DNA of 64,000 bases from Corallococcus coralloides (GCF_004104415.1 NZ_CP034669.1), one strand, 5' to 3'; counted from the first letter of the stretch, positions 3,685-16,228 are shown. Numbers and translations are program-made. The notes: generated by a model not told the origin, from the sequence alone.

Positions 3685-6246
3685 CTACGACCAGGCGGCC
3701 ATGCCGCCAATGCGGCGCAGCATCAGGATGGGGCCGTCGTCCATGCGCCGGCCGCGCAGATCAATCTCACAGTCGATGACCCAGTCCCCATGGCCCTCCG
3801 GGTCCATGATGCGCTGCTGGGCCTCCCACTGGCGCGTTCCTGCTTCCTTGAGCTGCGTGTTCGCCGGCTTGCGCGCCTGGGGCGTGAGCACCACCAGCTT
3901 GTGCTCCTCGAAGTACGGAGCCATGGCCTGCTCCAGCTTCGGCGCGGTCCACTCGCCCAGCGCGTTGTCCAGCATGCCCAGCGCGTCCAGGTAGCGGCGC
4001 TGGCCCAGCGCGCGCAGCAGCCGGTGCAGCTCCTCGCGCACGCGCGCGGCGAAGGCCTTGGGGTCCTCCGTGAGCTCCTTGGGCTTCAGGTCCACCACCG
4101 GCTTCACTTCGACGGGGGCCTCCGGGTTGCGCATCCGCTCCCACTCGTCCAGGAGGCTGGAGTCCACCTGACGCAGCGTCGCGCGGAGGTGGTCCAGGAT
4201 GTCGTCCAGGTCCTCGTTGCGGAACTTCTCCGGCACCGTCTGCACCAGCGACTTGTAGACGTCACCCACGTAGCGCAAGAGCACGCCCTCGCTGCGCTGC
4301 AGGCCGTACTCGCGCACGTAGTCGTGGAAGGACATGAAGCGCTCGAACATGTCCCGGACAATGGACTTGGGCCGGATGTTCTCCTCGCCCACCCACGGGT
4401 GCTTCTTCGCGAAGGCGTTGAAGGTGCCGTAGACGAACTCGCGGTTCGGCTTGGGCCACTCCAGCTTCTCCAGCTCCTCCATGCGGTCGTCGTACTCCAC
4501 GCCCCGCGCCTTCATCTCTTGGATCTTCTCCCCCTTCAGCTGGTGCAGCTGCGCGTACAGCACCACGTCCGGGTTCTCCAGGATGGACTCCACCAGCGTG
4601 ACGACGTCCAGCGCGTACGTGTCCAGCGTGGGATCCAACAGCTCCAGCGTCTCATGCAGGTACAGGGACAGCGTGTGGTTGAGGCTGAAGTCGCGCTGCA
4701 GGTCCTCCGACACCTCCACCGTCGCCGAGTGCTTCTCCCACTGCACCACCTTGACGATGCCCGCGTCGCGCAGCGTGCGGAAGTACATCGCCGCGTCCTT
4801 CAGCAGCTTCTTCTTCGTGTAGTCGGAGCTGTGCGAGCGCATCACCAGCTGCACCAGCCGCTTGTAGCCACCGCTGCCCTCCGTCTTGTCGCTCTGCAGC
4901 AGGTTGAGCAGCAGGCCGTGGCTCACGTCGAAGCGCGACTCCAGCGGCTCCGGCAGCCCGTTCTGGAGCCGCTCGAAGGTGCTCTTGTCGTACTGCACGA
5001 AGCCCTTCTGCGGCGGCTTCGCCTTGGGCGACTTCTTCTTGCCCGCGGCCTCCTTCGCGGCCTGGCGGATGTTTTCAATCATGTACTCCGGGGCCTGCGC
5101 CACCACGCTGCCCTCGGTGTCGAAGCCCTTGCGGCCCGCGCGGCCGGCGATCTGCTTGAAGTCGCGCACGCTCAGCGTCGTCAGCTTCTCGCCGTTGAAC
5201 TTGAACAGCTGCGTGAAGAGCACCGTGCGGATGGGGATGTTCACGCCCACGCCCAGCGTGTCCGTGCCGCTGATGACCTTGAGCAGGCCCTGCTGCGCCA
5301 GCTTCTCCACCAGCAGGCGGTACTTGGGCAAGAGGCCCGCGTGGTGCATGCCGATGCCGTGGCGCAGGAAGCGCTGGAAGTCCTTGCCGTAGGGCGTGTC
5401 GAAGGGGGCGTCCAAGAGCGCCTGGCGGATCTCCTCCTTCTCCTCCTTGGTGTTGAAGTCCACGGACATCAGATTCTGCGCCTGCTCGGCCGCGGCCCGC
5501 TGCGTGAAGTTCACCAGGTACACGGGGAACTTCCCGCGCGCGATGAGGTCCTGGATGGTCTCGTGCAGCGGCACCTCGCGGTAGTCGAAGTCCAGCGGCA
5601 CGGGGCGCTCGGAGCTGCGCACCGTGGCCACCTCGCGGCCGGTGAGCTTCTCCAGGCTCTGCTCGATGACGTGCGTGTCGCCCAGCGTGGCGGACATCAG
5701 CAGGAACTGCGTCTTGGGCAGCGCCAGCAGCGGAATCTGCCAGGCCACCCCGCGCTCCTTGTCGGAGTAGTAGTGGAACTCGTCCATCACCACCGCGTCC
5801 ACGCGCGCGGAGGCGTCACGCAGCGCGAGGTTCGACAAAATCTCCGCCGTGCAGCAGAGGATGGGCGCCTCGCGGTTGATGGACGCGTCGCCCGTGAGCA
5901 TGCCCACGTTCTCCGGGCCGAAGGCCTTGGAGAGCGCGAAGAACTTCTCGTTCACCAGCGCCTTGATGGGGCACGTGTAGAACGACACCCTCCCTTCGGC
6001 CATGGCCTTGAAGTGGAGCGCCATGGCCACCAGCGACTTGCCGGAGCCCGTGGGCGTCTTGAGGAACAGGTGCTTGTCGCTCAAGAGCTCCAGGATGGCC
6101 TCCTCCTGGGCGGAGTACAGGGAGAGGCCGTTCGTGGCCACGTAGCCCACGAAGCGGTTGAGGATCTCGTCGGCATCGAGGGGGGGCTCGCCGGGCTTCG
6201 GCAGCAGGGCGGCGAGCGGGGCGCGGGTGTCGGCGGAGGCACTCAT
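3685..6246 (-). CDS. DEAD/DEAH-box helicase with DUF3516-type C-terminal region (Ski2/Lhr-like)
   Basis: 853 aa; motif I 'KTPTGSGKSLVAMAL', II 'DEFHYY', III 'SATLG', VI 'QIAGRAGRKGFDTEG'; long helical C-terminal extension characteristic of DUF3516 helicases of high-GC bacteria. Confidence 0.85.
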   Translation of the reverse strand: MSASADTRAPLAALLPKPGEPPLDADEILNRFVGYVATNGLSLYSAQEEAILELLSDKHLFLKTPTGSGKSLVAMALHFKAMAEGRVSFYTCPIKALVNEKFFALSKAFGPENVGMLTGDASINREAPILCCTAEILSNLALRDASARVDAVVMDEFHYYSDKERGVAWQIPLLALPKTQFLLMSATLGDTHVIEQSLEKLTGREVATVRSSERPVPLDFDYREVPLHETIQDLIARGKFPVYLVNFTQRAAAEQAQNLMSVDFNTKEEKEEIRQALLDAPFDTPYGKDFQRFLRHGIGMHHAGLLPKYRLLVEKLAQQGLLKVISGTDTLGVGVNIPIRTVLFTQLFKFNGEKLTTLSVRDFKQIAGRAGRKGFDTEGSVVAQAPEYMIENIRQAAKEAAGKKKSPKAKPPQKGFVQYDKSTFERLQNGLPEPLESRFDVSHGLLLNLLQSDKTEGSGGYKRLVQLVMRSHSSDYTKKKLLKDAAMYFRTLRDAGIVKVVQWEKHSATVEVSEDLQRDFSLNHTLSLYLHETLELLDPTLDTYALDVVTLVESILENPDVVLYAQLHQLKGEKIQEMKARGVEYDDRMEELEKLEWPKPNREFVYGTFNAFAKKHPWVGEENIRPKSIVRDMFERFMSFHDYVREYGLQRSEGVLLRYVGDVYKSLVQTVPEKFRNEDLDDILDHLRATLRQVDSSLLDEWERMRNPEAPVEVKPVVDLKPKELTEDPKAFAARVREELHRLLRALGQRRYLDALGMLDNALGEWTAPKLEQAMAPYFEEHKLVVLTPQARKPANTQLKEAGTRQWEAQQRIMDPEGHGDWVIDCEIDLRGRRMDDGPILMLRRIGGMAAWS

Positions 6247-6298: not shown

Positions 6299-6733
6299 TC
6301 AGCGGGAAACGTACAGTCCCACCGCGATGCGACCCTCCGTCAGGGGTCCGCCGGCCGCGGGGCGCTGCCAGCACACCCGCCCCGCCTGCTCCTGCGACAG
6401 GCAGGGCACGTCCGTCACCTCCAGCGAGGCTCCGGCCAGGCGGGCCTTGCGCACGGCGGCGCTCCGCGTCAGGCCCAGCAGCTCCGGCGCGGCGGGCGGT
6501 GTCGCCTCGGGGCCCTGCTGGACGAAGAGGGCCCGCACCTCACCGGGGCCACCGGGGGTGAAGCGCATTCCCGTCCCGTCCGCGGTGACCCCGCCGTGCA
6601 GCTCCAGCTCCACCGGCCCCAGCACGAAGGGGCCGGCGCCGAGCCGCGCCTGGACCCGCGCGAGCGACTCACGCAGGTCCACCAGCAGGGCCTCCAGGTC
6701 GATGGCGTCGCTCATCGCGCCAGGGGCCTCCAC
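6299..6733 (-). CDS. Hypothetical protein with C-terminal PASTA-like domain; last gene of 11-gene operon
   Basis: 144 aa; C-terminus 'PELLGLTRSAAVRKARLAGASLEVTDVPCLSQEQAGRVCWQRPAAGGPLTEGRIAVGLYV' fits PASTA consensus; N-terminus helix+hairpin 'LEALLVDLRESLARVQARLG...VELELHGGV' may be a degenerate copy of the operon's repeated module. No signal peptide. Confidence 0.5.
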   Translation of the reverse strand: MEAPGAMSDAIDLEALLVDLRESLARVQARLGAGPFVLGPVELELHGGVTADGTGMRFTPGGPGEVRALFVQQGPEATPPAAPELLGLTRSAAVRKARLAGASLEVTDVPCLSQEQAGRVCWQRPAAGGPLTEGRIAVGLYVSR

Positions 6734-6752
6734 CGTGGCGTGGCGCCCCGGC

Positions 6753-7421
6753 TCACTTCAGCGTCCCGGGCGTCGTGGACTCCAGGACGGGCGAGCGGGT
6801 GGGCGTGCTGGTGGGGGGGAGCTTCCCGCCCCCGGTGGCTTGCACGGTGAGCACCAGCTCGGTGCCGCGCGGAAGCAGCGTCCCCGGCTCGGCCGAGGCC
6901 GAGGTGACCAGGGCGGCGTCCGCCGCGCCGCTGGGGAACCGGTGCGGCACGCCAATCGCGGACAGCAGCAGCCGCGCGTCGCCCACCGTCTTGCCCACCA
7001 CCGCCGGCACCACCACCAGCGCCTCCGCCTGGGGCGAGGGAGGCACCGGCACCACCCGGAACTTCAGCCGCGACTGCGCCGTCAGGTTGTAGGCGAAGCG
7101 GTTGGTGTAGCTGGCGTCCATGGGCGCGCCGTACATCTTCAGCCGCGTCCGTCCATCCGTCCGCTCCTCCGCGGTGATGGACAGCGCCACGGCGATCTCC
7201 GCCTCGGCCTCGGGGATGTGGTACCAGGTCGGCCGGTAGCCGATGCGCTGCAGCTCCACCGCCAGGTCCTCGTCGGAGGCGTAGAGCTCGCGGATCCGCT
7301 CGATGGTCGCCGCGTCCAGCTCCCGCTGCGCCTCCGCCACGCCGCGGCCCACCGAGGAGATCAACGCGCCCAGCGGCGCGCTCAGCGCCTCCAGTTGGGG
7401 GACGTCATTCGAATCCGCCAT
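6753..7421 (-). CDS. Repeated-module paralog (copy 6) fused to C-terminal PASTA-like domain
   Basis: 222 aa; module 'LGALISSVGRGVAEAQRELD...WYHIPEAEAEIAVALSITAEERT...YNLTAQSRLKFRVVPVPPSP' then PASTA-like 'VVPAVVGKTVGDARLLLSAIGV...VTSASAEPGTLLPRGTELVLTV'. 3-nt gap to next gene. Confidence 0.55.
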   Translation of the reverse strand: MADSNDVPQLEALSAPLGALISSVGRGVAEAQRELDAATIERIRELYASDEDLAVELQRIGYRPTWYHIPEAEAEIAVALSITAEERTDGRTRLKMYGAPMDASYTNRFAYNLTAQSRLKFRVVPVPPSPQAEALVVVPAVVGKTVGDARLLLSAIGVPHRFPSGAADAALVTSASAEPGTLLPRGTELVLTVQATGGGKLPPTSTPTRSPVLESTTPGTLK

Positions 7422-7424
7422 GGT

Positions 7425-8156
7425 TCAGCCCTCCATCGCCTGGCCAATGATCAACTGCACGGGGCCCGAAGCGAGCGGCTTGCCGGGCTCCGGAATCTGC
7501 CGCAGCACGCGCCCCCACTGCCCGGGCTCCTTGACGAAGAGCGGCATCAGGTCCACCCGCAGCCCCGCCTCCGCCGCGCGCCGCCGGGCCGCCGAGGCCG
7601 TCAGCCCCAGGAAGCCTGGCACCTCGCGGGCGGGCGCGTCGCCCGGCTCGGGCGCGGCGGGAGACTGCTCCACGAACTGGGCCTCCGCCTCCGTCACGCC
7701 CTCGGGCGTCGTCTCCGTCCACCGCACGCGCACGGTGCTCAACCGCACCGTCGTCAGCGACGAGCGCACCGACTCAATCTGCTGGCCCGCCGACTTCAAC
7801 TTGTCGGACAGCACCAGGGACGGGGGCTGTTCCAGGGCGGGCTCCTTCGTGGGCTCCACCGCCGCGGAGGACACGGCGCGGACGCCCTCCCTCGCGGGCT
7901 CCAGGACGACCATCGTCCCGTAGTCGATGAGGGTGCTGCTCATCTTCACCGGGAAGGTGGCCACCCCGGCGGAGTCCAGCCGGAGGTGGGAGCCGAAGGT
8001 GGCGCTGCTGACCTCCATCTCCAGCACGCCCTCCTGGTTCGTCACCCCGGTGTCGCGCAGCTCGAAGGTGCCCGCCTTCGCGGGGACCCACCACGCCACC
8101 TTCATGCCCGCCACGGGGACTCCCGTGGCCTTGCGGAACACGGCCCGGACCTTCAT
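7425..8156 (-). CDS. CarboxypepD_reg/Big-like domain protein with C-terminal PASTA-like domain
   Basis: 243 aa; 'KATGVPVAGMKVAWWVPAKAGTFELRDTGVTNQEGVLEMEV' resembles carboxypeptidase-regulatory-like beta-sandwich; C-terminus 'VPGFLGLTASAARRRAAEAGLRVDLM...VLRQIPEPGKPLASGPVQLIIG' PASTA-like. ATGA overlap with upstream gene. Confidence 0.5.
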   Translation of the reverse strand: MKVRAVFRKATGVPVAGMKVAWWVPAKAGTFELRDTGVTNQEGVLEMEVSSATFGSHLRLDSAGVATFPVKMSSTLIDYGTMVVLEPAREGVRAVSSAAVEPTKEPALEQPPSLVLSDKLKSAGQQIESVRSSLTTVRLSTVRVRWTETTPEGVTEAEAQFVEQSPAAPEPGDAPAREVPGFLGLTASAARRRAAEAGLRVDLMPLFVKEPGQWGRVLRQIPEPGKPLASGPVQLIIGQAMEG

Positions 8157-8818
8157 CGAGCCACCTCGCAGGACAGCGCCAGCGTCCGCGACGCGGCGTC
8201 CACCGTGAGCGCCAGGATGCGGGCCTGCTCGCCGGCCGCCACGCGCAGCGTCGTCCGCGCCTCCCCGGCCGCGTCCGTCCTCACCACCGCGAGCACCACG
8301 TCCGTGCCCGCCAGCGGCGCCACGCCGGACAGCGACTGCGTCGTCCGCCGGTCCAGGTTGAACTCCACCTCCACGCCCGGCAGGGGCTCGCCCGCGGCGT
8401 TGCGCACGCGCACCACCACGCCCGGCACGCCCCCGTCGCCGAGGACGCAGCGGGCGTCCAGCACCACCGGAGGCAGGCCCTCGTTGGCCGGCACCGCGAC
8501 GAAGCTGCCGCGGATCACGCTGACAATCTCAGTCTGCGTCTGCGAAGAGGCCACGTCCGCCAGCCGCACGGGCCGCATCTTCAGGATCTTCCCGGTGGCC
8601 ACCGGTCCGGTGGTGGTGGTGGACGTCTCCACGCGCAGGTCCATCCGCAGCTCGAACTCCAGCTTCGGCACGTAGTAGGTGAACTGGCGGCCGGGGGCGC
8701 CGGCCGCGGAGATGCCCCCCAGCTCCTGCTGGGCCTTCGCCAGGCCGTCGGCCAGCTCGAGCAGGTACTCGTCCAGCGTGCCGAACAACTCCTGCGCCTG
8801 CTGTGTCGTGTCACTCAT
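8153..8818 (-). CDS. Repeated-module paralog (copy 5) fused to CarboxypepD_reg/Big-like domain
   Basis: Track ORF 8153..8857; start MSDTTQQAQELF at 8818 gives 8-nt 'ATGAGTGA' overlap with upstream stop. Module 'LDEYLLELADGLAKAQQELG...FTYYVPKLEFELRMDLRVETS...TQTEIVSVIRGSFVAVPANE' then 'VPGVVVRVRNAAGEPLPGVEVEFNLD' beta-sandwich. Confidence 0.55.
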   Translation of the reverse strand: MSDTTQQAQELFGTLDEYLLELADGLAKAQQELGGISAAGAPGRQFTYYVPKLEFELRMDLRVETSTTTTGPVATGKILKMRPVRLADVASSQTQTEIVSVIRGSFVAVPANEGLPPVVLDARCVLGDGGVPGVVVRVRNAAGEPLPGVEVEFNLDRRTTQSLSGVAPLAGTDVVLAVVRTDAAGEARTTLRVAAGEQARILALTVDAASRTLALSCEVAR

Positions 8819-9761
8819 CCCGCGCTCCCTGGCGCCCGCGTTCCCGCCGCGCGTCACGTGCCGTGTCGCGTGCGTCCATGTCGTCCATGCCCATGCCGGC
8901 GCGCTCCATCTCCATGTCCATCCGCTGCTCCATGGATTCCATGTCCATGCCGGCCATCGCCAGTCCGCGCATCATCAGGGCCTCGGTGTCCATCGAGCGG
9001 GGATCCATCCCCCGAAGCTCGCGCGCCACCGCCACCCCCTTCTCCACCTTCCCTACCGTGAGCCCGCCGCGCCCCACCAGGGCCCGGCCCACCTGCCCGA
9101 GCGAGGGCAGCGCCTGGCCCTTCTCCAGCGCGAGGGGCTTGCGCGCCGCCGAGCGCGCCTCCTCCGCCGCGTCCGACAGCCGCCGGGTCGCGGACCCCAG
9201 CTCGCCCAGGGTCATGCGCCCCCGGCCCGGAGACTCCAGCACGCGCTGCGCCAGCCGCGTCGCCAGCTTCGCGCGCTCACGCGCCTTGCGCGCCCACTGC
9301 TGGCGCAGCGTCTGCTGCTTCTGCGCCTGACGCCGGGCCGCCTTCCCCGTCTCCAGGCGCTCGCGGCGCAGCGCCTCCACCCGCTCGGCCTCCTCCGCCT
9401 CCGTCCGGCGCCGGGCGTATAGCTTCTGCTCCAGCAGCCGCCGCGCGGTGTCCCGCTCGTGCTGCTTGCGCTCCGCGATGCGCGACTCCGGCGTGTGCTG
9501 GACGACGGGGAACTGCTTCGCCAGCCGCTCGTCCACGGGCGCCTCCTGCACGCCGCTCAGCGCCTTCATCGTGTCTTCGAGCTGCCGGCGCTCCTTCAGC
9601 AGCGCCGCCAGCTCCGGGTCGCTGGCGGCCACCTGCTCCAGCGAGGGCACGGGCGCCGCCGCGGACGTGTCCGCTCCCGGAGCAGGAGCGGGCGCGCCAG
9701 CGTCGTCGGGGGCCCCGGCGGCGTCCTCCTCGAGCAGGTCTTCCCAACGGACGTGTGACAT
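8811..9761 (-). CDS. Highly charged coiled-coil protein with Met/Asp-rich C-terminal tail
   Basis: 316 aa, R/E/K/Q-rich heptad-like stretches ('RRRTEAEEAERVEALRRERLETGKAARRQAQKQQTLRQQWARKARERAKLA'), C-terminus 'MMRGLAMAGMDMESMEQRMDMEMERAGMGMDDMDARD'. No signal peptide. Confidence 0.5.
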   Translation of the reverse strand: MSHVRWEDLLEEDAAGAPDDAGAPAPAPGADTSAAAPVPSLEQVAASDPELAALLKERRQLEDTMKALSGVQEAPVDERLAKQFPVVQHTPESRIAERKQHERDTARRLLEQKLYARRRTEAEEAERVEALRRERLETGKAARRQAQKQQTLRQQWARKARERAKLATRLAQRVLESPGRGRMTLGELGSATRRLSDAAEEARSAARKPLALEKGQALPSLGQVGRALVGRGGLTVGKVEKGVAVARELRGMDPRSMDTEALMMRGLAMAGMDMESMEQRMDMEMERAGMGMDDMDARDTARDARRERGRQGARDE

Positions 9762-9779
9762 GCGCGGCGCCCCTCTTCG

Positions 9780-10370
9780 TCAGGTGACGTTGCCCACGGC
9801 GGTGTCGATCTTCCCGCTGACGGCCTCGCCCTCCGCGGTGCCCTTGAGGCTCTTGGCGATCTCCGCGCAGATCTGCTGGAGCGCCGCGGGCGGGGGGATG
9901 GGCACCAGCTTGGTGCGGATGAGGCTCGAGCCCTCGGCGGAATAGCTGTACTTCTGCGAGTGCTTGGCCGTGACGGTGGTGACGTGGCTCTTGTGGCCCT
10001 TCACCAGCGTGGTGAGGATGCCCTTGTCGCGGTCCACCTTGCGGTCGCGCGTCTGGGTCGAGTCGTCCGTGGACTCGTGCATGGAGATCTCCATCTTCAC
10101 TTCGATGATGGTCTCCACGAACTGGTAGAACGTGGGCGTGAAGCCGAGCAGGAGCAGGGGGTACTCGGTGGTCCCCAGCTTCACGAAGCCGGCGCCGTCC
10201 CGCACGGCGTTGCCGCTATCGTCGATGCGGTAGCCCGCCATGAGCTGGGCGATCTTCAGCGATGAGCTGTCCAGCGCGTACTGGGCATCCGCGATGGCGT
10301 TGCCCAGGTTGCGGACCATCTCCCCGAAGGGGACGTTGAGCAGATCCTGACCAATGGAGTGAGTGGGCAT
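9780..10370 (-). CDS. Repeated-module paralog (copy 1), stand-alone 196 aa
   Basis: 'LLNVPFGEMVRNLGNAIADAQYALD...LGFTPTFYQFVETIIEVKMEISMHEST...KYSYSAEGSSLIRTKLVPIPPPAAL'. Aligns along full length with 10389..10961 and 10984..11487. Confidence 0.6.
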   Translation of the reverse strand: MPTHSIGQDLLNVPFGEMVRNLGNAIADAQYALDSSSLKIAQLMAGYRIDDSGNAVRDGAGFVKLGTTEYPLLLLGFTPTFYQFVETIIEVKMEISMHESTDDSTQTRDRKVDRDKGILTTLVKGHKSHVTTVTAKHSQKYSYSAEGSSLIRTKLVPIPPPAALQQICAEIAKSLKGTAEGEAVSGKIDTAVGNVT

Positions 10371-10388
10371 GGTGCGCGCGCTCCCGGG

Positions 10389-10961
10389 CTACTTCGTGGT
10401 GGGCGTGGTGCCGGCCCTGGACGCGATGAGCGCGCGAACCCGCTCCTCGAAGAGGGCCGGCGGAGGCACCGGCACCAGCTTGGTGCGCAGCAGGCTGGAG
10501 CCCTCCACGCTGTAGTCGTACTTGCGCGTGTAGCTGGCATCCACGGTCGTCACCACGGCCTGGGGCGCGCCGCCGCGCTTGAAGAGGCGCAGCCCGCCGG
10601 CCGTCCGCGAGGTGCTCTGCGTCGCCACCTTGCTCTCCGTGCTCTCCGTCATCTTGATGGCGATCTTCACCTCGATGATGGTGTCCACGAACTGGTAGAA
10701 GTTGGGCGCGAAGCCCAGCTCCATCATGGACGAGGGCGTGCCCGCGAAGGACACCTTGGTGTCCACCCGGATGGGCTTGCCGGAGCCGTCGAGCTGGATG
10801 TTCCCGTCGGCGTCCCGCAGCAGCGCCTCGCCGCTCATCATCTCCGCGACGAGCATCCCGCTCTTGTCCAGCTCGAGCTGCGCCTCGGCGATGGCGGTCG
10901 CCATCTCACGAATCATGTCCCCCATGGGGACGTTCAGCAGTTCCTGACCGACGTTGGGCAT
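10389..10961 (-). CDS. Repeated-module paralog (copy 2), stand-alone 190 aa
   Basis: 'LLNVPMGDMIREMATAIAEAQLELD...LGFAPNFYQFVDTIIEVKIAIKMTESTES...KYDYSVEGSSLLRTKLVPVPPPALF'; AAGGA Shine-Dalgarno-like upstream. Confidence 0.6.
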   Translation of the reverse strand: MPNVGQELLNVPMGDMIREMATAIAEAQLELDKSGMLVAEMMSGEALLRDADGNIQLDGSGKPIRVDTKVSFAGTPSSMMELGFAPNFYQFVDTIIEVKIAIKMTESTESKVATQSTSRTAGGLRLFKRGGAPQAVVTTVDASYTRKYDYSVEGSSLLRTKLVPVPPPALFEERVRALIASRAGTTPTTK

Positions 10962-10983
10962 GGTGTCTGGGTCCTTGCGCGCT

Positions 10984-11487
10984 TCAGGCGGAGGTGTTGG
11001 TGGAGGCCGCGGGGGCGGGCGGCTGGGCGGCGATCTCGTTGAGCAGTTGGTGCAGGCGCGCGGGCGGGGGCAGCGACACCAGCCGCGCGGCGATGGAGCT
11101 GGCCCCCTGCACCTCGAAGCCGTACTTGCGGCTGTACTCGGCGTTGACCGTCACGGAGAAGACGCCGGCCATGCCGCCCGTCGCGCCGCCGCCCACGGAG
11201 AACTCCGTGGACTCGCGGATGGTGAAGGTGAGCTTCGCCTCGAGCGTGGCCTCGGCGAAGGCGTAGAACGTGGGCGTGAAGCCGAGCGCGAGCAGGCTCC
11301 ACAGCTGCCCGTCGCCCAGGTCCACGGTGCGCTCGGACATGCGCTTCGCGATGTCCAGCGAGTTGATGTCCAGCGCGTGCTGCGCGTCCGCCACCGCGCG
11401 CCCGAGCCGCTCGATGAGCTCCGGCAGCGGCGCGTCCAGCACCGTCATCATCGCGCGCTGGCCCTGCGTGGTGTTGTTTCCGGGCAT
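10984..11487 (-). CDS. Repeated-module paralog (copy 3), stand-alone 167 aa
   Basis: 'LPELIERLGRAVADAQHALD...LGFTPTFYAFAEATLEAKLTFTIRESTEFSV...KYGFEVQGASSIAARLVSLPPPARL'; AGGAGG SD immediately upstream. Confidence 0.6.
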   Translation of the reverse strand: MPGNNTTQGQRAMMTVLDAPLPELIERLGRAVADAQHALDINSLDIAKRMSERTVDLGDGQLWSLLALGFTPTFYAFAEATLEAKLTFTIRESTEFSVGGGATGGMAGVFSVTVNAEYSRKYGFEVQGASSIAARLVSLPPPARLHQLLNEIAAQPPAPAASTNTSA

Positions 11488-11496
11488 GGGGCCTCC

Positions 11497-13593
11497 TTAC
11501 GGGTACCAGCGCTGGAGGTAGTCGCCAATGGCCTGGAGGAACTGGGGCGGCGCGGGCACCGCCACCAGACGGGCCTTGATGGTCGAGCTGCCGGACACGC
11601 TCAGCTCGTACTTCACCGCCAGGTGCGCATCCACGTTGAGGGCGCGCAGCTCGCGCTCGGAGCTCTCCTCGCGGTCCGCGGACGGCTTGCCGGCGATGCG
11701 GTTGGCGGACAGCAGGAAGGCGGCGGGGTTGCTGGTGCCCAGCATGGTGCCGGAGGGGCCGGAGACGGTGACGATGTTGCCCGCGGACTGGGCCTGGAGG
11801 CCCGCGGCCAGCAGGCCGGAGCTGGAGCCCGCCGTGATGGCGGCGGCCAGGTTGCGCGCCGTGTCCGCGGCCGTCACCCCCAGCGTGAACTGCCCTGGCT
11901 GCGGGGCGACGCCGGCCTCCACGGCCACCAACTGCACGTTGTCGAGGACGACGGTGTCGCGCGGCTGGGGCGAGGCCGGGGGGCGGCCGTCGCCGAAGCG
12001 GCGGGCCACGCGGATGGAGCCGGCGGCGGACAGGGCCGGCGCGGTGGGCGTGCGCGCGAACAGGGTGAACAGGGCGTGGTCGCCGGTGCCGTACAGGTAG
12101 ACGCGGTCCCCGCGCGCGAAGGCGCCGAAGGCGGTGTTGGCGTTGGCGTCGCGGATGGCGCGGGCCAGGTTGGCGGCGGTGGACTCGGCGGTGGCGCCCA
12201 CCGCGAAGGTGGTGCCCTGGGAGGCGGTGCCCTGGGTGAAGTCCGTGCCGCGGAAGGTGACGACGGCCGTGGTGGGCGCGTTCGCCGCGGCGCGCGTGCG
12301 CGGCACGATGCGGGCCTCCCGGTCCGCCCCCGTGGGGTCGAAGGCGGCCGTGGCCGCGACGGTGCGGGCCACCAGCGACGCGGGCACGCCGGCGAACTTG
12401 AAGACGACGCGCCGGTTGGCCGCCAGGTCGGAGCCGCTGAAGCTGACCGTCGCGCCCATGCCCCGGGCCTTGAGCCTGCTGGCCGCCACGCCCCGCGACG
12501 TCAGCGCCCGCAGGACGAAGTCCGCGCGCTTCTGCGACAGGCGCTGGTTGTAGCCGGGGGCCGGCGGGGTGCGCTGGTCCGCCCAGCCCTCCAGGTCCAG
12601 CGAGGCGGACGGGTGCTCCGCCAGCAGCGCCGCCACCGCGTCGAGCACGGCGGAGGGCTCGCGGTCCGTGCTGTAGGTGGTGGTGGGCACGTCGTGGATG
12701 TCGGTGTCGAAGTAGAGGGCCCGGTTGCAGTCAGCGCCGGAGACGACGACGAAGGCCGCCGGGTCCACCTGCTGGCCAATGTCCGCCAGCGCCGCGCCCA
12801 CCGTCGCCGCGGCGCTGGTGTAGCGCGTGCCGTTGGTGGCCGGCAGCAGCAGCGCGGGCGCGGGCGTCACGCTGCCCAGGCGCGCGATGACCAGGTTGTC
12901 GCCGGGCGCCGCCTGCGGCGAGGTGCGCACGGTGATGACCGAGCGGTTGATGGCGTAGAGGTCCGGGCGGTTGGTGCTGGCGGTGACGCCCGACTGCATC
13001 TCCCAGTCCATGAAGATGCCCTGCAGATCCCCCGTGGCCTGGTTGGTCCAGACGGAGTTGTTGCGCAGGGCCACGAGCAGCTCCTGCGCCGTCTCCCACA
13101 GCGTGTCCTGGCGGGTCACGGGCAGGCCGGTGCTGTTGGGCCCCACGCCGCCGTCCAGCGCGTAGCTGGTGGTGCCCACCGTGAGGTGGCCCGGCGCGTT
13201 GGCCACCAACGCCAGACAGGCGTAGGGGGGAATGCCCTCGCCGTCCTGCACGGTGAGGGTGGCGCTGCCGCTGGCGGAGGACGTCTCGAGGCTGTACTCG
13301 CTCGACTCGTTCTCCCGGTCGTAGTTGAAGTTGACGTCCACGTCGACGGTGGTCGAGTAGTAGACGTTGAGGTTCACCTCCAGGTCGGCGTACTGGAAGT
13401 GGTAGAAGGCCGGCCGCAGCCCCAGCGACAGCAGGTTCTGCGTCATGCCCGGCAGGACGGTCTGCCCCATGCGCAGCGTCTGGTCCACGCTGTTGGTGTC
13501 CAGCTTGGCCTGGGCCTCGGCGATGGCGAGCCCCATGTCCCGGATGAAATCGGAGATGTTGAGATCCGCGAGGATCTTCCCTGCTTTCGGCAT
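11497..13593 (-). CDS. Repeated-module paralog (copy 4) split around a large insert containing an OmpA/MotB-like peptidoglycan-binding domain
   Basis: 698 aa; N-terminus 'ILADLNISDFIRDMGLAIAEAQAKLD...LGLRPAFYHFQYADLEVNLNVYYSTTVDVDV', central 'LDLEGWADQRTPPAPGYNQRLSQKRADFVLRALTSRGVAASRLKARGMGATVSF...NRRVVFKF' (OmpA_C-like), C-terminus 'KYELSVSGSSTIKARLVAVPAPPQFL'. No signal peptide. Confidence 0.6.
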   Translation of the reverse strand: MPKAGKILADLNISDFIRDMGLAIAEAQAKLDTNSVDQTLRMGQTVLPGMTQNLLSLGLRPAFYHFQYADLEVNLNVYYSTTVDVDVNFNYDRENESSEYSLETSSASGSATLTVQDGEGIPPYACLALVANAPGHLTVGTTSYALDGGVGPNSTGLPVTRQDTLWETAQELLVALRNNSVWTNQATGDLQGIFMDWEMQSGVTASTNRPDLYAINRSVITVRTSPQAAPGDNLVIARLGSVTPAPALLLPATNGTRYTSAAATVGAALADIGQQVDPAAFVVVSGADCNRALYFDTDIHDVPTTTYSTDREPSAVLDAVAALLAEHPSASLDLEGWADQRTPPAPGYNQRLSQKRADFVLRALTSRGVAASRLKARGMGATVSFSGSDLAANRRVVFKFAGVPASLVARTVAATAAFDPTGADREARIVPRTRAAANAPTTAVVTFRGTDFTQGTASQGTTFAVGATAESTAANLARAIRDANANTAFGAFARGDRVYLYGTGDHALFTLFARTPTAPALSAAGSIRVARRFGDGRPPASPQPRDTVVLDNVQLVAVEAGVAPQPGQFTLGVTAADTARNLAAAITAGSSSGLLAAGLQAQSAGNIVTVSGPSGTMLGTSNPAAFLLSANRIAGKPSADREESSERELRALNVDAHLAVKYELSVSGSSTIKARLVAVPAPPQFLQAIGDYLQRWYP

Positions 13594-13596
13594 GGT

Positions 13597-14145
13597 CTAC
13601 CCCAGGGGTGAAGCAACGGGAGGAAGTGAGACGGCGACTTCGGGACGAACGGTGTCCGGACGGACGACCCAGTAGGCGTGACGGTCCTGCTCCAGCGTGA
13701 TGCGGCGCGCGTCCACGTGCAGCCCGGTCCGCGCCCAGCCCAGTACCCGCTCCGACAGCGGGAGCCGCCCGGCGCCGGCCAGCGCCACCGCGGACTCCAG
13801 CCGGGTGCGCGCCTCCGCCAGGCGCCCCAGCTTCGCCAACGCCAGGCCGTGCCGCTCGTGGTGCGCGGCCAGGTCCAGGAGGGCCAGGTCGCTCGTGGGA
13901 GGCTGCTGCTGGTAGTGGGCCTCCACGCGCTGGCAGAAGGAGATGACGGCCTCGTGGGCCCCCGAGCGCTCCAGCGACTCGAGCACGCACCACGCATAGT
14001 GACGCTGGCAGACGTCGGAGCCGCCCTGGAGCGCGGCCAGCCGCAGCGCTTCCCGGTAGTGGCGCAGCGCCTCGTCATGCCGGCCGGCCAGCGCGAACAC
14101 CTTGCCCTGCTCCGCCACGCGGAAGTGGAGCGCGAGGGAGCTCAC
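13597..14145 (-). CDS. TPR-repeat protein
   Basis: 182 aa; helical repeats 'HDEALRHYREALRLAALQGG', 'AEARTRLESAVALAGAG' typical of TPR; ATGA overlap with upstream gene. Confidence 0.55.
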   Translation of the reverse strand: MSSLALHFRVAEQGKVFALAGRHDEALRHYREALRLAALQGGSDVCQRHYAWCVLESLERSGAHEAVISFCQRVEAHYQQQPPTSDLALLDLAAHHERHGLALAKLGRLAEARTRLESAVALAGAGRLPLSERVLGWARTGLHVDARRITLEQDRHAYWVVRPDTVRPEVAVSLPPVASPLG

Positions 14146-15224
14146 TGGGCCACCAGCGAGGCCCGCGTGCCCCGCGCTTTCAGCTCCGCGACGAGCCAGC
14201 GTGCGCGCGTGTCCCCCACCGCGGGCTGGAAGGTATGCGGCAGCCGGGAGAGCGCGGTGCGCGCCTCGTTGGCGGGCAGCCCCAGCACCGGGGCCAGCAG
14301 CTCCGCGGCCCCGGCGGGGTCCTTCGAGTCCTCCACCGTCAGGCGGAAGCTGCGGAAGTTGAGGAGCTGCACGGCCAGCTTCGCGCCCGCGGCCTCCAGG
14401 GGAGCGGTGCGCGCCACCACGTCCGCGCGCGACAGTCCCGTGTGCAGCACCACCGGCAGCCGCTTGAGCACCTTCGGCACCAGCGCCGGGGGCATGCCGG
14501 TCTCACGCACCAGCAGCTCCGGGAAGCCGGCGGCGGCGGGGGCCTCCAGGAGGCTGACGTCGAAGCGCTGGAAGGCGTGGTCCAACAACCGCACCCCACC
14601 CCGCGCTCCCAGCTCCCGCCACACGCGCTCCGCCTGCTCGTGCGAGAGGTCCCGGGCCACCAGCGGAGGCTCGCCCGGACTCACGCCCTGCGCCTCCAGC
14701 ACCGAGCGGACCACCGAGAGGCTGACCGCTTCGGTGGCGAAGACGTCATAGCGGGCCGTGGGCGGATGGCTGGCGTCCACCTCCGCGCCCAGCGGGGCGA
14801 AGCGCTCCCGGAGCGCGTCCACCGTGGCCTGGGACACGGAGCCGAGCACCGTGGGCGGCGTGGCGCAGAGCGCCGCGGCGGCGTCCGCCAGGGGACAGCC
14901 CAGGACGGCCGCCAGCTCCGTGGAAACCTCACGGAAGCGCCCGCCGTCACGCAGGTACAGCGCCACGTCGTAGGTCTGCCCGGCGGGGGGAGGAAGGGGC
15001 GCGTCATCCGGCTCCACGACCACGCGCAGGCCGGCGTTGCCCAGCACCTCCGACAGGCTCCTGGCGAGCTCCTCGGGCAGCCCTCCCGCCAGCACCGCGG
15101 GGGCGCGGAACAGCCGCGCGGCGAGCTCCGCCGGGGGCAGATCGAAATGGGGCACCAGGGCGCGGACGATGCTCGCGGAGCCTCGGTGCAAGGAGAGAAC
15201 AGTAACGCGCCATGAACCGTTCAT
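14142..15224 (-). CDS. Protein composed of ~5 tandem ribosomal L7/L12 C-terminal-domain-like repeats; first gene of operon
   Basis: 360 aa; repeats e.g. 'LPEELARSLSEVLGNAGLRVVVE', 'LSRADVVARTAPLEAAGAKLAVQ', 'ANEARTALSRLPHTFQPAVGDTRARWLVAELKARGTRASLV' resemble Ribosomal_L12 CTD (EAKdlve..Pk.lkegvskeeAeeikkkLeeaGAkvel). Confidence 0.5.
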   Translation of the reverse strand: MNGSWRVTVLSLHRGSASIVRALVPHFDLPPAELAARLFRAPAVLAGGLPEELARSLSEVLGNAGLRVVVEPDDAPLPPPAGQTYDVALYLRDGGRFREVSTELAAVLGCPLADAAAALCATPPTVLGSVSQATVDALRERFAPLGAEVDASHPPTARYDVFATEAVSLSVVRSVLEAQGVSPGEPPLVARDLSHEQAERVWRELGARGGVRLLDHAFQRFDVSLLEAPAAAGFPELLVRETGMPPALVPKVLKRLPVVLHTGLSRADVVARTAPLEAAGAKLAVQLLNFRSFRLTVEDSKDPAGAAELLAPVLGLPANEARTALSRLPHTFQPAVGDTRARWLVAELKARGTRASLVAQ

Positions 15225-15234
15225 CTGGAAACAC

Positions 15235-15262
15235 GAGACACCATCCGGTGTTTCACTGTCAA
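15235..15262 (-). promoter_or_regulatory. Candidate operator/promoter of the 11-gene operon: imperfect inverted repeat GAGACACC-N4-GGTGTTTC 11 nt upstream of ATG, preceded by TTGACA hexamer
   Basis: Seen directly: + strand 15235-15254 'gagacaccatccggtgtttc' (7/8 palindromic arms); 15257-15262 'tgtcaa' = TTGACA on the coding strand. No convincing -10 hexamer. Confidence 0.25.
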
Positions 15263-15510
15263 CGATTCGCGAGGTGCGAGGCGCTTACCAATGTATGAGA
15301 AATGCCCGCTCGCTCCTCTCAATCCAACCTCCTCCGTCATGACGCGGGCTGATACACGCCCGTGAAACATCCGGCTGGGTCTGGGCCGGCGGGTCGTGCC
15401 TGACGCCCTGCCTGCCCGGTCTGTGCTCACAGGCACACTGGCAACGGCTGAAGCGCGCATGGCCATGGGCGGAGGGCCTCCCCATCCTGCCCCCGCGACA
15501 TTCACGGGGG

Positions 15511-16161
15511 ATGAAAATGCGGACAGCGAAATTCTGGATGGGGACACTGCTGGCGGGCGCGCTGGCGCTGGGCTACGGGTGCGGAAGCGACGCGAACAAG
15601 GATCCGGCGCCGCAGGACGCGCCACAGCAGCAGGTCCCGGACGCGGGCACCGACGCGGGCGTGGTGCTGACGCTCACCGACGCGCAGATCGCCCGCGTCC
15701 TGCAGGTGGCCAACGAGGGCGAGGTGATGCTCGGCCAGTACGCCGCGTCGGTCGCCACCGACCAGGCCGTGATCGACTTCAACAACCAGATGGTGACCGA
15801 GCACACCGCCGTGAAGCAACGGCTGGACGCGGTGCTCGCGGCCGAGGGCATCACGCCCGAGGACTCCGCGCTGAGCCTCCAGTTGCAGACCGAGGTCCAG
15901 CAGCTCATGCAGATCCTCCAGGGCCCGAACGCGCCGGCCGCGGGCGCCGCGCTCGACCTGGCGTTGCTCAGCGCGCAGCTCAACGCGCACGCGCGCACCG
16001 CCTTCATCGGCGACAGCCTGCTGACGCCGCAGGCCACCAACACGGCCCTTCAGCAGGAGCTGCTCAGCGAACGGCAGGCCGTGCAGACGCACATCGACGA
16101 GGTGGCGGAACTCCAGTCCGCCATCGTCTTGCCTCCCATCGAGCCTCCCGTCGAGCCGTAG
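15511..16161 (+). CDS. DUF4142-family lipoprotein (predicted outer-membrane protein)
   Basis: 216 aa; signal + lipobox 'LALGYGC'; 'LTDAQIARVLQVANEGEVMLGQYAASVATDQAVIDFNNQMVTEHTAVKQRLD' matches DUF4142 duplicated-helix pattern. Confidence 0.75.
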   Translation: MKMRTAKFWMGTLLAGALALGYGCGSDANKDPAPQDAPQQQVPDAGTDAGVVLTLTDAQIARVLQVANEGEVMLGQYAASVATDQAVIDFNNQMVTEHTAVKQRLDAVLAAEGITPEDSALSLQLQTEVQQLMQILQGPNAPAAGAALDLALLSAQLNAHARTAFIGDSLLTPQATNTALQQELLSERQAVQTHIDEVAELQSAIVLPPIEPPVEP

Positions 16162-16196
16162 CCGGAGCGCCTTCCGTCTCTGGCTAAAAGTACAGC

Positions 16197-16228
16197 TCGG
16201 GCTCTCAGAACCTGAGAGCCCGAGCGCC
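16197..16228 (+). terminator. Perfect 14-bp stem hairpin (GCTCGGGCTCTCAG-AACC-CTGAGAGCCCGAGC) downstream of DUF4142 gene
   Basis: Seen directly; GC-rich stem, no U-tract (common in high-GC genomes). Confidence 0.5.

Follow-up and report, generated by a model that had tools for sequence, protein, structure and literature searches.

In a 64,000-nucleotide stretch of the Corallococcus coralloides genome (GCF_004104415.1, NZ_CP034669.1; hereafter the window, with a G+C content of ~71%), eleven minus-strand open reading frames (ORFs), which we number O1 to O11, fill positions 6299–15224, at the coordinates that a first-pass annotation of the sequence had given. Read from O1 to O11, the intergenic gaps measure -4, 3, 9, 22, 18, 18, -8, -4, 3 and 19 nucleotides (nt). 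The close packing described in that annotation held up, as did the overlaps ATGA at 8153–8156 and ATGAGTGA at 8811–8818, in the second of which the ATG of O8 at 8818 gives an 8-nt overlap with the O7 stop; the overlap at 14142–14145, described as ATGA, reads GTGA. Public gene calls match all eleven ORFs and give later starts only to O1 (11 codons later, for a product of 349 amino acids (aa)), O7 and O11 (ATG at 6715, 138 aa). The sequence of O5 is identical to that of O5 in C. coralloides KYC2213 (L005 among the numbered loci from other genomes). Together these genes form a self-contained cassette of about 9 kb, present in one copy in the window, with a core of ten genes, whose families across genomes we call G1 to G10, and with O11 as an optional eleventh (Table 1).

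Table 1. Features of the cassette in the window, and of genes downstream of the cassette at loci in other genomes (locus number given with the position).
Feature	Position	Strand	Description
O1 (G1)	14142–15224	-	Five tandem L7/L12-C-terminal-domain-like repeats; 360 aa from the first ATG
O2 (G2)	13597–14145	-	TPR protein, 182 aa; GTG start overlapping the O1 stop (GTGA)
O3 (G3)	11497–13593	-	Module interrupted by a ~520-aa insertion at the hairpin tip
O3, N-terminal half of module	13246–13587	-	Profile hidden Markov model (HMM) match, residues 3–116
O3, OmpA-like domain	12421–12654	-	Residues 314–391; Pfam OmpA (PF00691), 41.7 bits, E 1.5e-10, cut-off 27.2
O3, C-terminal half of module	11524–11667	-	HMM match, residues 643–690
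O4 (G4)	10984–11487	-	Stand-alone module, 167 aa
O5 (G5)	10389–10961	-	Stand-alone module, 190 aa; most conserved protein of the cassette
O6 (G6)	9780–10370	-	Stand-alone module, 196 aa
O7 (G7)	8811–9761	-	Highly charged R/E/A/Q-rich helical protein, 316 aa
O7, C-terminal 66 residues	8814–9011	-	21% Met, 15% Asp
O8 (G8)	8153–8818	-	Divergent sixth module, then Ig-like beta-sandwich (about 8204–8419)
O9 (G9)	7425–8156	-	N-terminal Ig-like domain, linker, mini-module, C-terminal PASTA (7446–7625)
O10 (G10)	6753–7421	-	Module and C-terminal PASTA (6843–7016), 29.8 bits
O11	6299–6733	-	Optional gene; short paralogue of the C-terminal part of G9
O11, mini-module	6569–6703	-	Helix and short hairpin; Trypco2 match, residues 11–55
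O11, PASTA-like domain	6305–6487	-	Pfam E 2.8e-4, 21.2 bits, just below cut-off
Intergenic region	15225–15510	.	Between O1 and a divergent plus-strand DUF4142 gene
Leader pair	L004 14957–18421		Downstream proteins with a common leader
Leader pair	L012 14988–18476		Downstream proteins with a common leader
Leader pair	L036 9945–12639		Downstream proteins with a common leader
Leader pair	L003 14880–17343		Downstream proteins with a common leader
Laminin_G_3 fusion	L081 13707–15560		Extra module protein, E 1.6e-28
Laminin_G_3 fusion	L078 17831–19993		Extra module protein, E 5.6e-40

The first-pass annotation had proposed that six of these proteins carry one module that it could not place in any family, and it quoted three motifs for this module, all of which occur literally in O5. 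We built a module profile from the O5 orthologues together with O4 and O6 and ran it on the six-frame translation of the window. In addition to O4 (E 5.5e-44) and O6 (E 8e-67), which are themselves in the profile, it recovered O3 (E 6.6e-21, as a match split around the insertion) and O10 (E 6e-14), with the best unrelated ORF of the window at E 2.6; O8 was not picked up. Comparison of family alignments from 80 genomes with hhalign connected G3, G4, G5, G6 and G10 mutually at 99–100% probability (G4 vs G3, G5, G6 and G10, 99.8–100%; G5 vs G6, 100%; G10 vs G3–G6, 99.2–99.8%), and G8 to G10 at 97% (E 8e-11) and to G4 at 89%. The profile matches and the alignments of G3–G6, G8 and G10 therefore confirm six copies of the module. 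A mini-module, consisting of a helix and a short hairpin, lies ahead of the PASTA domain in O9 and O11.

The full module matched nothing in Pfam, NCBIfam, PHROGs or PADLOC (ten window proteins, with O11 scanned against Pfam), a sequence-profile search of the PDB with the module found no match, and six of the cassette's parts are named by none of the four protein-family libraries. The annotation's failure to place the module thus stands for the full form; the short version in O9 and O11 resembles Trypco2, as described below. None of 1647 homologues of O5 has a Pfam domain, and all of the named ones displayed are called 'hypothetical protein'. Literature searches found the cassette described nowhere; most subscription journals were outside their coverage, so an earlier description is possible.

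A relative of O5 is found in 257 species among 185,579, counted as one genome per species (0.14%). By their organism names, these carriers include Myxococcota, Gamma- and Alphaproteobacteria (among them Caulobacter and Sphingomonas), Bacteroidota and Balneolales, as well as Verrucomicrobiota, Planctomycetota, Chloroflexota, Gemmatimonadota, Acidobacteriota and Desulfobacterota. In 42 of 80 fetched loci G1 to G10 are collinear, and 18 more miss only a detectable G7, which is of low complexity; most of the remaining 20 are interrupted by contig ends. The genes thus behave as a co-evolving unit, with identical order in 60 of the 80 genomes. The operon is conserved far more widely than the annotation had guessed; its carriers fall in about ten phyla, and it is not a feature of Myxococcales. 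Ten genes held in identical order over so many phyla point to a multi-protein machine under strong selection. G5 is 50–60% identical between phyla and nearly invariant throughout its first helix and on the two faces of the proximal hairpin half; conservation also extends to the N-termini of G4, G5 and G6.

The cassette is bordered by housekeeping genes. No gene or regulator upstream of it is conserved beyond the genus level, no extra gene is conserved beside it, and its loci do not lie within defence islands. This rare but phylogenetically very broad occurrence indicates horizontal spread, and we conclude that the cassette was probably disseminated by horizontal transfer. Carriage on plasmids was considered and rejected, the sole plasmid hit being a simpler relative of the cassette.

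The six modules are accompanied by, and in part fused to, several other kinds of domain. G1 is the cassette's first gene in 76 loci, and the five L7/L12-like repeats annotated in O1 were borne out both by a match to Pfam Ribosomal_L12 (PF00542; 29.1 bits, cut-off 25.9) and by aligning the G1 family with itself, which gave probabilities of 99–69% at offsets of one to four repeats. Three of the repeats matched the C-terminal domain (CTD) of Escherichia coli L7/L12 at 92%, 86% and 68%; O1 is not ribosomal L7/L12 itself (TIGR00855, 21.5 bits vs a cut-off of 84.4). G2 is invariably the second gene, and O2 is indeed a TPR protein, with TPR_12 and TPR_2 at the Pfam cut-offs. The OmpA domain of O3 also proved sound, scoring above the Pfam cut-off, and the same stretch is matched by 22 NCBIfam OmpA-type families; about half of the loci have a short G3 (about 170–290 aa as ORFs) without the insertion.

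O7 contains 39% charged residues between residues 46 and 215 and ends in a tail of unusual composition (MDMESMEQRMDMEMERAGMGMDDMD). G7 varies in length from 212 to 640 aa between genomes but keeps its position. O7 has no family match in Pfam, NCBIfam or PHROGs, and in PADLOC only a weak match to RT_III-A (E 0.016), which we take to be a coiled-coil artefact. This is also the only match, and a weak one, to the defence models of PADLOC-DB 2.0, and no match of meaning to PHROGs was found among the ten window proteins.

The remaining fusions fared unevenly. Of the three annotated PASTA C-termini, those of O9 (PF03793, 26.7 bits vs a 23.2-bit cut-off) and O10 exceed the threshold and that of O11 falls just under it. 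The beta-sandwich domains of O8 and O9 are seen only as sub-threshold hits, in O8 to Big_1 (E 2e-5) and CarboxypepD_reg (E 0.04) and in O9 to Big_1. In other genomes the linker of G9 forms a coiled coil whose length differs greatly. O11 is found in 12 loci, and its top match among the profiles of the cassette families is G9. As the annotation had stated, none of O1–O11 has an N-terminal signal-like segment, nor a transmembrane segment, by simple hydropathy rather than SignalP; the highest 19-residue Kyte-Doolittle mean, 1.72, belongs to an Ala-rich helix of O1. The cassette proteins are, in sum, conserved, enzyme-free, ATPase-free, leaderless and structural-looking.

To obtain a view of the fold, we modelled O5 using AlphaFold2 with 42 homologues (mean pLDDT 74.8). 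The model comprises a helix (residues 13–42), a small variable insert, two strands (88–119 and 135–165) and a second helix (169–185). The N-terminal helix is amphipathic, and the strands form a hairpin of ~30 residues per strand with a disordered tip. In its proximal half the hairpin alternates between hydrophobic and charged positions, both of them invariant; the distal half is polar and variable. The OmpA-containing insertion of O3 sits where the O5 model puts the hairpin tip, and the PASTA domain of O10 and the Ig-like domain of O8 follow the last strand.

A Foldseek search of the PDB with the O5 model returned nothing significant (best E 0.027). The list consists mostly of long-hairpin staves, from CDTb, iota Ib, the anthrax PA pore, lysenin and aerolysin, and also includes FlgH, the FliF collar, SpoIIIAG and phage tail knobs; we read the resemblance as one of shape, not as evidence of homology. 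What the module would have in common with these non-significant neighbours (the toxins anthrax PA, CDTb/iota Ib, lysenin and aerolysin, and the FlgH L-ring, FliF collar and SpoIIIAG) is a very long hairpin of the type that serves as a stave in oligomeric barrels. It has no sequence or domain relationship to any of them. The toxin and ring proteins possess globular cap or ring domains and Sec signals, except FliF, which has transmembrane segments of its own, and the hairpin tip of the toxins is hydrophobic whereas the distal half of the module's hairpin is polar. Foldseek against BFVD gave a single borderline neighbour of the O5 model, A0A516MP19, an unnamed viral protein of 178 aa (E 7e-4, TM 0.33).

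The mini-module points to a known family, Trypco2 (PF19631; named in eLife 2020, PMC7159879). Trypco1 and Trypco2 have since been renamed Pepco, a protein of ~117 residues that assembles into SDS-resistant 9–10-mer beta-barrels with basal amphipathic helices, the pore arising once an adjoining protease removes a Pro- and charge-rich tail (bioRxiv 10.1101/2025.11.14.688446). Pepco is an anti-phage abortive-infection pore, and some of its partner proteases carry fused sensor domains that bind peptidoglycan (10.1101/2025.11.14.688446). Residues 11–55 of O11 match Pfam Trypco2 with E 3e-4 and 21.4 bits, under the gathering score of 24.2; O3–O6, O8, O9 and O10 give no match at E<=1. Among 62 module or mini-module sequences, five match Trypco2 at E<=0.05, and these are presumably closely related O11 orthologues of Corallococcus, Myxococcus and Archangium.

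For more sensitive comparison with hhalign, we assembled a Trypco2 set of 150 diverse representatives of the 917 sequences found at E<=1e-3 by an exhaustive HMM search, and took the SsPepco sequence from the supplement of 10.1101/2025.11.14.688446. The mini-module (the O11 family and G9) aligned with this set at 84–86% (E ~5e-6), in register across 52–83 columns. The full modules gave lower values, 19–39% for G8, 12–42% for G10, 7–8% for G4 and about 0–2% for G3, G5 and G6, and the controls G1, G2 and G7 gave 0.1–0.4%; alignment A2 vs A6 in the same test gave 0.5%. The mini-module in turn aligned with G8 at 66%, G6 at 47% and G3 at 32%, and with a narrow, Streptomyces-only Pepco alignment at only 11–14%. 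When the Trypco2 HMM was run against the 13,659 ORFs of all loci, none was individually significant, but all of the top ten and 34 of the top 45 scores belonged to module-bearing ORFs, which make up an estimated ~4% of the total; these ORFs are orthologous to each other, so the independent evidence is less than the count suggests. An AlphaFold2 model of the Pepco orthologue P0125 (helix 6–22; strands 38–46, 52–58 and 76–81) and the O5 model have the same order of elements, a helix followed by antiparallel strands, in a comparison of order only, without superposition.

Judged by sequence, the short module of O9 and O11 is probably related to Trypco2. The full module is linked to Trypco2 weakly; it is plausible that this long form belongs to the Trypco2 superfamily as a much larger member, an assignment that we judge about twice as likely to be right as wrong. 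The two have in common an N-terminal amphipathic helix, antiparallel amphipathic strands and a Pro-rich segment past the last strand. Pepco, however, is a single protein of ~100–140 aa beside a trypsin- or caspase-like protease fused to a sensor, whereas the cassette has six obligatory paralogues of 167–698 aa with hairpins about three times longer, fused wall-binding domains, four more conserved proteins and no protease. The eleven window proteins contain no peptidase domain, and no protease is conserved beside the cassette. Because it has no protease, because its modules fall under the family threshold and because its architecture is wholly different, the cassette is not a Pepco system.

A function akin to that of Pepco is nonetheless the main rival to the assembly that we propose below. 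The cassette could be a suicide device against phage or stress, forming giant Pepco-like pores from the cytoplasm, with the PASTA and OmpA-like domains sensing muropeptides or wall precursors that build up upon phage damage to the wall, and O1 and O2 serving as sensors or adaptors; once the inner membrane was opened, leaderless hydrolases encoded downstream would complete lysis. The likeness of the mini-module to an abortive-infection pore whose proteases can be fused to peptidoglycan-binding sensors fits such a device, as do the lack of export signals and the patchy, transfer-like distribution (0.14% of species in about ten phyla). However, Pfam identifies no protease or NTPase in the eleven window proteins, PADLOC is empty save for the one coiled-coil match, the loci are not in defence islands, and the 50–60% identity of G5 between phyla is, in our view, not usual among defence genes. 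A cytoplasmic sensor would not be expected to bear Ig-like or Laminin_G_3 domains or long coiled-coil fibres, and the six obligatory paralogues would be left without explanation. We therefore regard a suicide device as unlikely, though it deserves the most serious consideration among the alternatives.

The genes directly 3' of G10 vary between genomes and are often wall-acting. In some genomes they encode an Amidase_2 protein with or without SH3_3, in others a Peptidase_M74 with PG_binding_1 or a lysozyme-like protein, and in one (L036) LodA. Extra module proteins found after G10 are fused to Laminin_G_3 domains, of the concanavalin-A-like lectin type (Table 1). In Amphritea/Neptuniibacter loci (L025–L029, L046, L048–L060 and L068) the cassette is followed by a Q/S-rich protein of ~105–120 aa and then by a protein of 470–750 aa starting with MCN or MCD (L046 14697–17276), two representatives of which (L046 and L025) matched nothing in Pfam, NCBIfam or the PDB. 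None of the downstream proteins that we inspected has a signal-peptide-like N-terminus, as judged by eye.

Adjacent downstream proteins that are otherwise unrelated have their first 35–43 residues in common. Leaders of this kind are matched within pairs at two independent loci, L004 (E 7e-9) and L036 (E 2.5e-6), at L012, a close relative of L004 (E 2e-7), and marginally at L003 (E 0.008). Among the pairs are a 693-aa PG_binding_1 protein beside a Peptidase_M74/PG_binding_1 enzyme, and LodA beside a protein of 292 aa that has no assigned family. A leader common to such different proteins looks like a targeting or docking peptide.

The leaders resemble encapsulation peptides, which would suit an intracellular shell, filament or compartment, similar to a gas vesicle or nanocompartment, in which the wall-binding-type domains had some other ligand. 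The lack of export signals would agree with this, and the order helix, hairpin, helix in small conserved tandem paralogues, several per operon, is reminiscent of GvpA. The cassette has none of the partners GvpN, GvpF and GvpL, however, and the module's hairpin is twice as long. GvpA, which the annotation had already excluded, was rejected as the identity of the module: hhalign gave 0.2% against a GvpA sequence, and there was no Gas_vesicle hit in Pfam. No Gvp, encapsulin or bacterial microcompartment (BMC) family was matched, and wall hydrolases would be odd cargo for the cytoplasm unless the cell later lysed. A shell of this kind is very unlikely.

One downstream arrangement recalls phage lysis. 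In Pleionea sediminis (L038 15888–16828), a GH108 protein with PG_binding_3 and then GTA_holin_3TM directly follow an extra module gene; such a holin-endolysin pair was seen after the cassette only at this locus. A holin of the gene transfer agent (GTA) type with a GH108 endolysin could indicate a phage-derived particle, be it a tailocin, a GTA or a prophage remnant. Yet a phage origin was rejected when no homologue was found in 50,697 phage genomes or 2.9 million IMG/VR contigs; PHROGs gave no meaningful match, no sheath, tube, baseplate, portal, terminase or integrase is present, and the structural matches are all sub-significant. This explanation is close to refuted.

The same lysis genes bear on another alternative, that the cassette builds a permanent structure in the producer's own envelope, a periplasm-spanning anchor, junction or conduit on the peptidoglycan, exported by an unrecognised route such as a conserved N-terminal signal. 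The conserved N-termini of G4, G5 and G6 could supply such a signal, the OmpA-like domain is of the type that anchors envelope machines (its NCBIfam hits include Pal, MotB, TssL, PorE and YiaD), the hosts are, judging by organism names, nearly all diderm, and the operon is strict and stoichiometric-looking. Against a permanent structure, neither the cassette nor the genes beside it provide a membrane protein, an ATPase or any known part of an export system, and the cassette is dispensable, missing from >99.8% of species. The holin-endolysin pair and endolysin-like amidases downstream also indicate lysis rather than a stable structure. We consider a permanent envelope structure distinctly improbable.

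A reduced relative helps to separate the core of the system from its additions. This minimal cassette has five collinear genes, encoding two full modules, a short G8-like module, a coiled-coil protein that ends in a mini-module and a fifth protein of ~110 aa with no family. It occurs on a Sphaerotilus sulfidivorans plasmid (NZ_CP035710.1; L085 11643–14422) and, being widespread in metagenomes, on ~25 metagenome contigs (loci L088–L150), with identities across metagenomes of mostly 60–100%. It has no wall-binding domains, L12-repeat gene or TPR gene, and no conserved neighbours, the apparent clusters being alternative-frame shadows of the core genes. As it does without a wall-binding domain, assembly of modules would be the core property and wall binding an add-on.

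The annotation's reading of the operon as a heteromeric envelope-associated structure would fit the domain content. We tentatively propose, as a possibility still well short of even, that the cassette encodes a complex that assembles by itself into a barrel or tube, travels to the cell wall along a non-classical route and binds or breaches the wall. The hairpins of the six subunits would pair edge to edge, so that the subunits together build a long hetero-oligomeric beta-barrel or tube; their helices would add a second layer, and the Pepco/Trypco2 assembly would be the counterpart of this barrel on a smaller scale. The core would be decorated by the OmpA-like domain at the hairpin tip of O3, the C-terminal PASTA domains of O9, O10 and O11, the Ig-like domains of O8 and O9, and, elsewhere, LamG lectin-like domains on extra subunits. 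O7 and the coiled coil of O9 may act as spacers or fibres, and O1 and O2 may act in assembly or control. The decorating domains (PASTA, OmpA-like, Ig-like and LamG) normally work outside the cytoplasm; their presence on proteins with no export signal suggests that the complex probably reaches the wall non-classically. Its exit could be by lysis of the producer or through a pore of its own making. At the wall, the complex would bind peptidoglycan and breach or degrade an envelope, in many genomes probably acting jointly with leaderless wall hydrolases or LodA from the downstream genes. These enzymes would be passengers, some of which the N-terminal leader could dock to the complex.

Several observations weigh against this proposal. 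Of the roughly 66 loci that extend downstream of the cassette, only about a dozen have a recognisable wall enzyme; the majority of downstream proteins match nothing, and in the window no hydrolase or holin adjoins the operon; among the eleven window proteins Pfam finds no muralytic domain and hydropathy no transmembrane protein. Support for the barrel comes from analogy and from a monomer model whose confidence is moderate, hhalign relates the full-length module to Trypco2 at no more than 42% and at about 0–2% for G3, G5 and G6, and the missing signal peptides were judged from hydropathy alone. Peptidoglycan-binding domains occur at both ends of the hairpin (the O3 tip and the O10 C-terminus), which is awkward for a simple transmembrane barrel, and in the minimal cassette the modules have no wall-binding domain at all. 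The five L7/L12-CTD repeats of O1 and the Met/Asp tail of O7 fit no part of the proposal neatly. The probability that is left beyond the readings named here falls to something else.

Two kinds of known system invite comparison with the proposed complex. Lysis cassettes, such as holin-endolysin pairs, 'type 10' secretion and tailocin release, likewise place leaderless peptidoglycan hydrolases at the end of a structural operon, but the core of the cassette has no holin or membrane protein and no phage homology, and the window has no hydrolase. Cellulosome-like scaffolds, as a pure analogy, combine a non-catalytic scaffold bearing substrate-binding modules with variable enzymes that carry a short docking-like peptide; unlike cellulosome parts, which are exported by Sec and use cohesin and dockerin, the cassette encodes neither domain, and its substrate would be peptidoglycan. 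The system fits no known kind; a distant relative of its building block has probably been characterised recently.

The flanks of the operon were also surveyed. The region at 15225–15510 is presumed to be the operon's promoter region; neither a sigma-70-like consensus nor an Rfam family was found in it or in the operon region. The divergent plus-strand DUF4142 gene occupies 15511–16161, a strong terminator-like hairpin of 14 bp, 10 of them G-C pairs, lies just past it on the minus strand (16195–16225), and a Ser/Thr kinase gene is found farther upstream. On the other side, 52 nt downstream of O11, the minus strand encodes a DEAD/DEAH-box helicase with DUF3516 (3685–6246; E 2e-153), which probably lies outside the cassette because its linkage to the operon is seen only in Corallococcus species. 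Elsewhere in the window, between 44000 and 56000, the G+C fraction drops from ~0.71 to 0.60–0.65, and this segment may be a foreign island.

The cassette may thus represent an unrecognised nanomachine, a giant hetero-oligomeric barrel or tube of six Pepco-like paralogues, with no ATPase, membrane or phage part, that delivers itself, together with wall-degrading or oxidative enzymes bearing a docking leader and no signal peptide, to the producer's own peptidoglycan or to that of a target cell; we rate this as a real prospect that does not quite reach even. Such a machine would in effect constitute an apparatus of a new class, for lysis, secretion or bacteriocin action. If a large barrel does export wall-binding domains and enzymes without Sec, it would offer a new route for folded proteins to the wall, and LodA-type oxidases and leaderless wall hydrolases are cases that need a Sec-independent route of this sort. 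The Pepco pore fold would then also have a much larger, multi-subunit relative. The compact, self-contained layout of ~9 kb makes the idea amenable to heterologous expression, and for predators such as Corallococcus the cassette is a candidate killing or feeding device.

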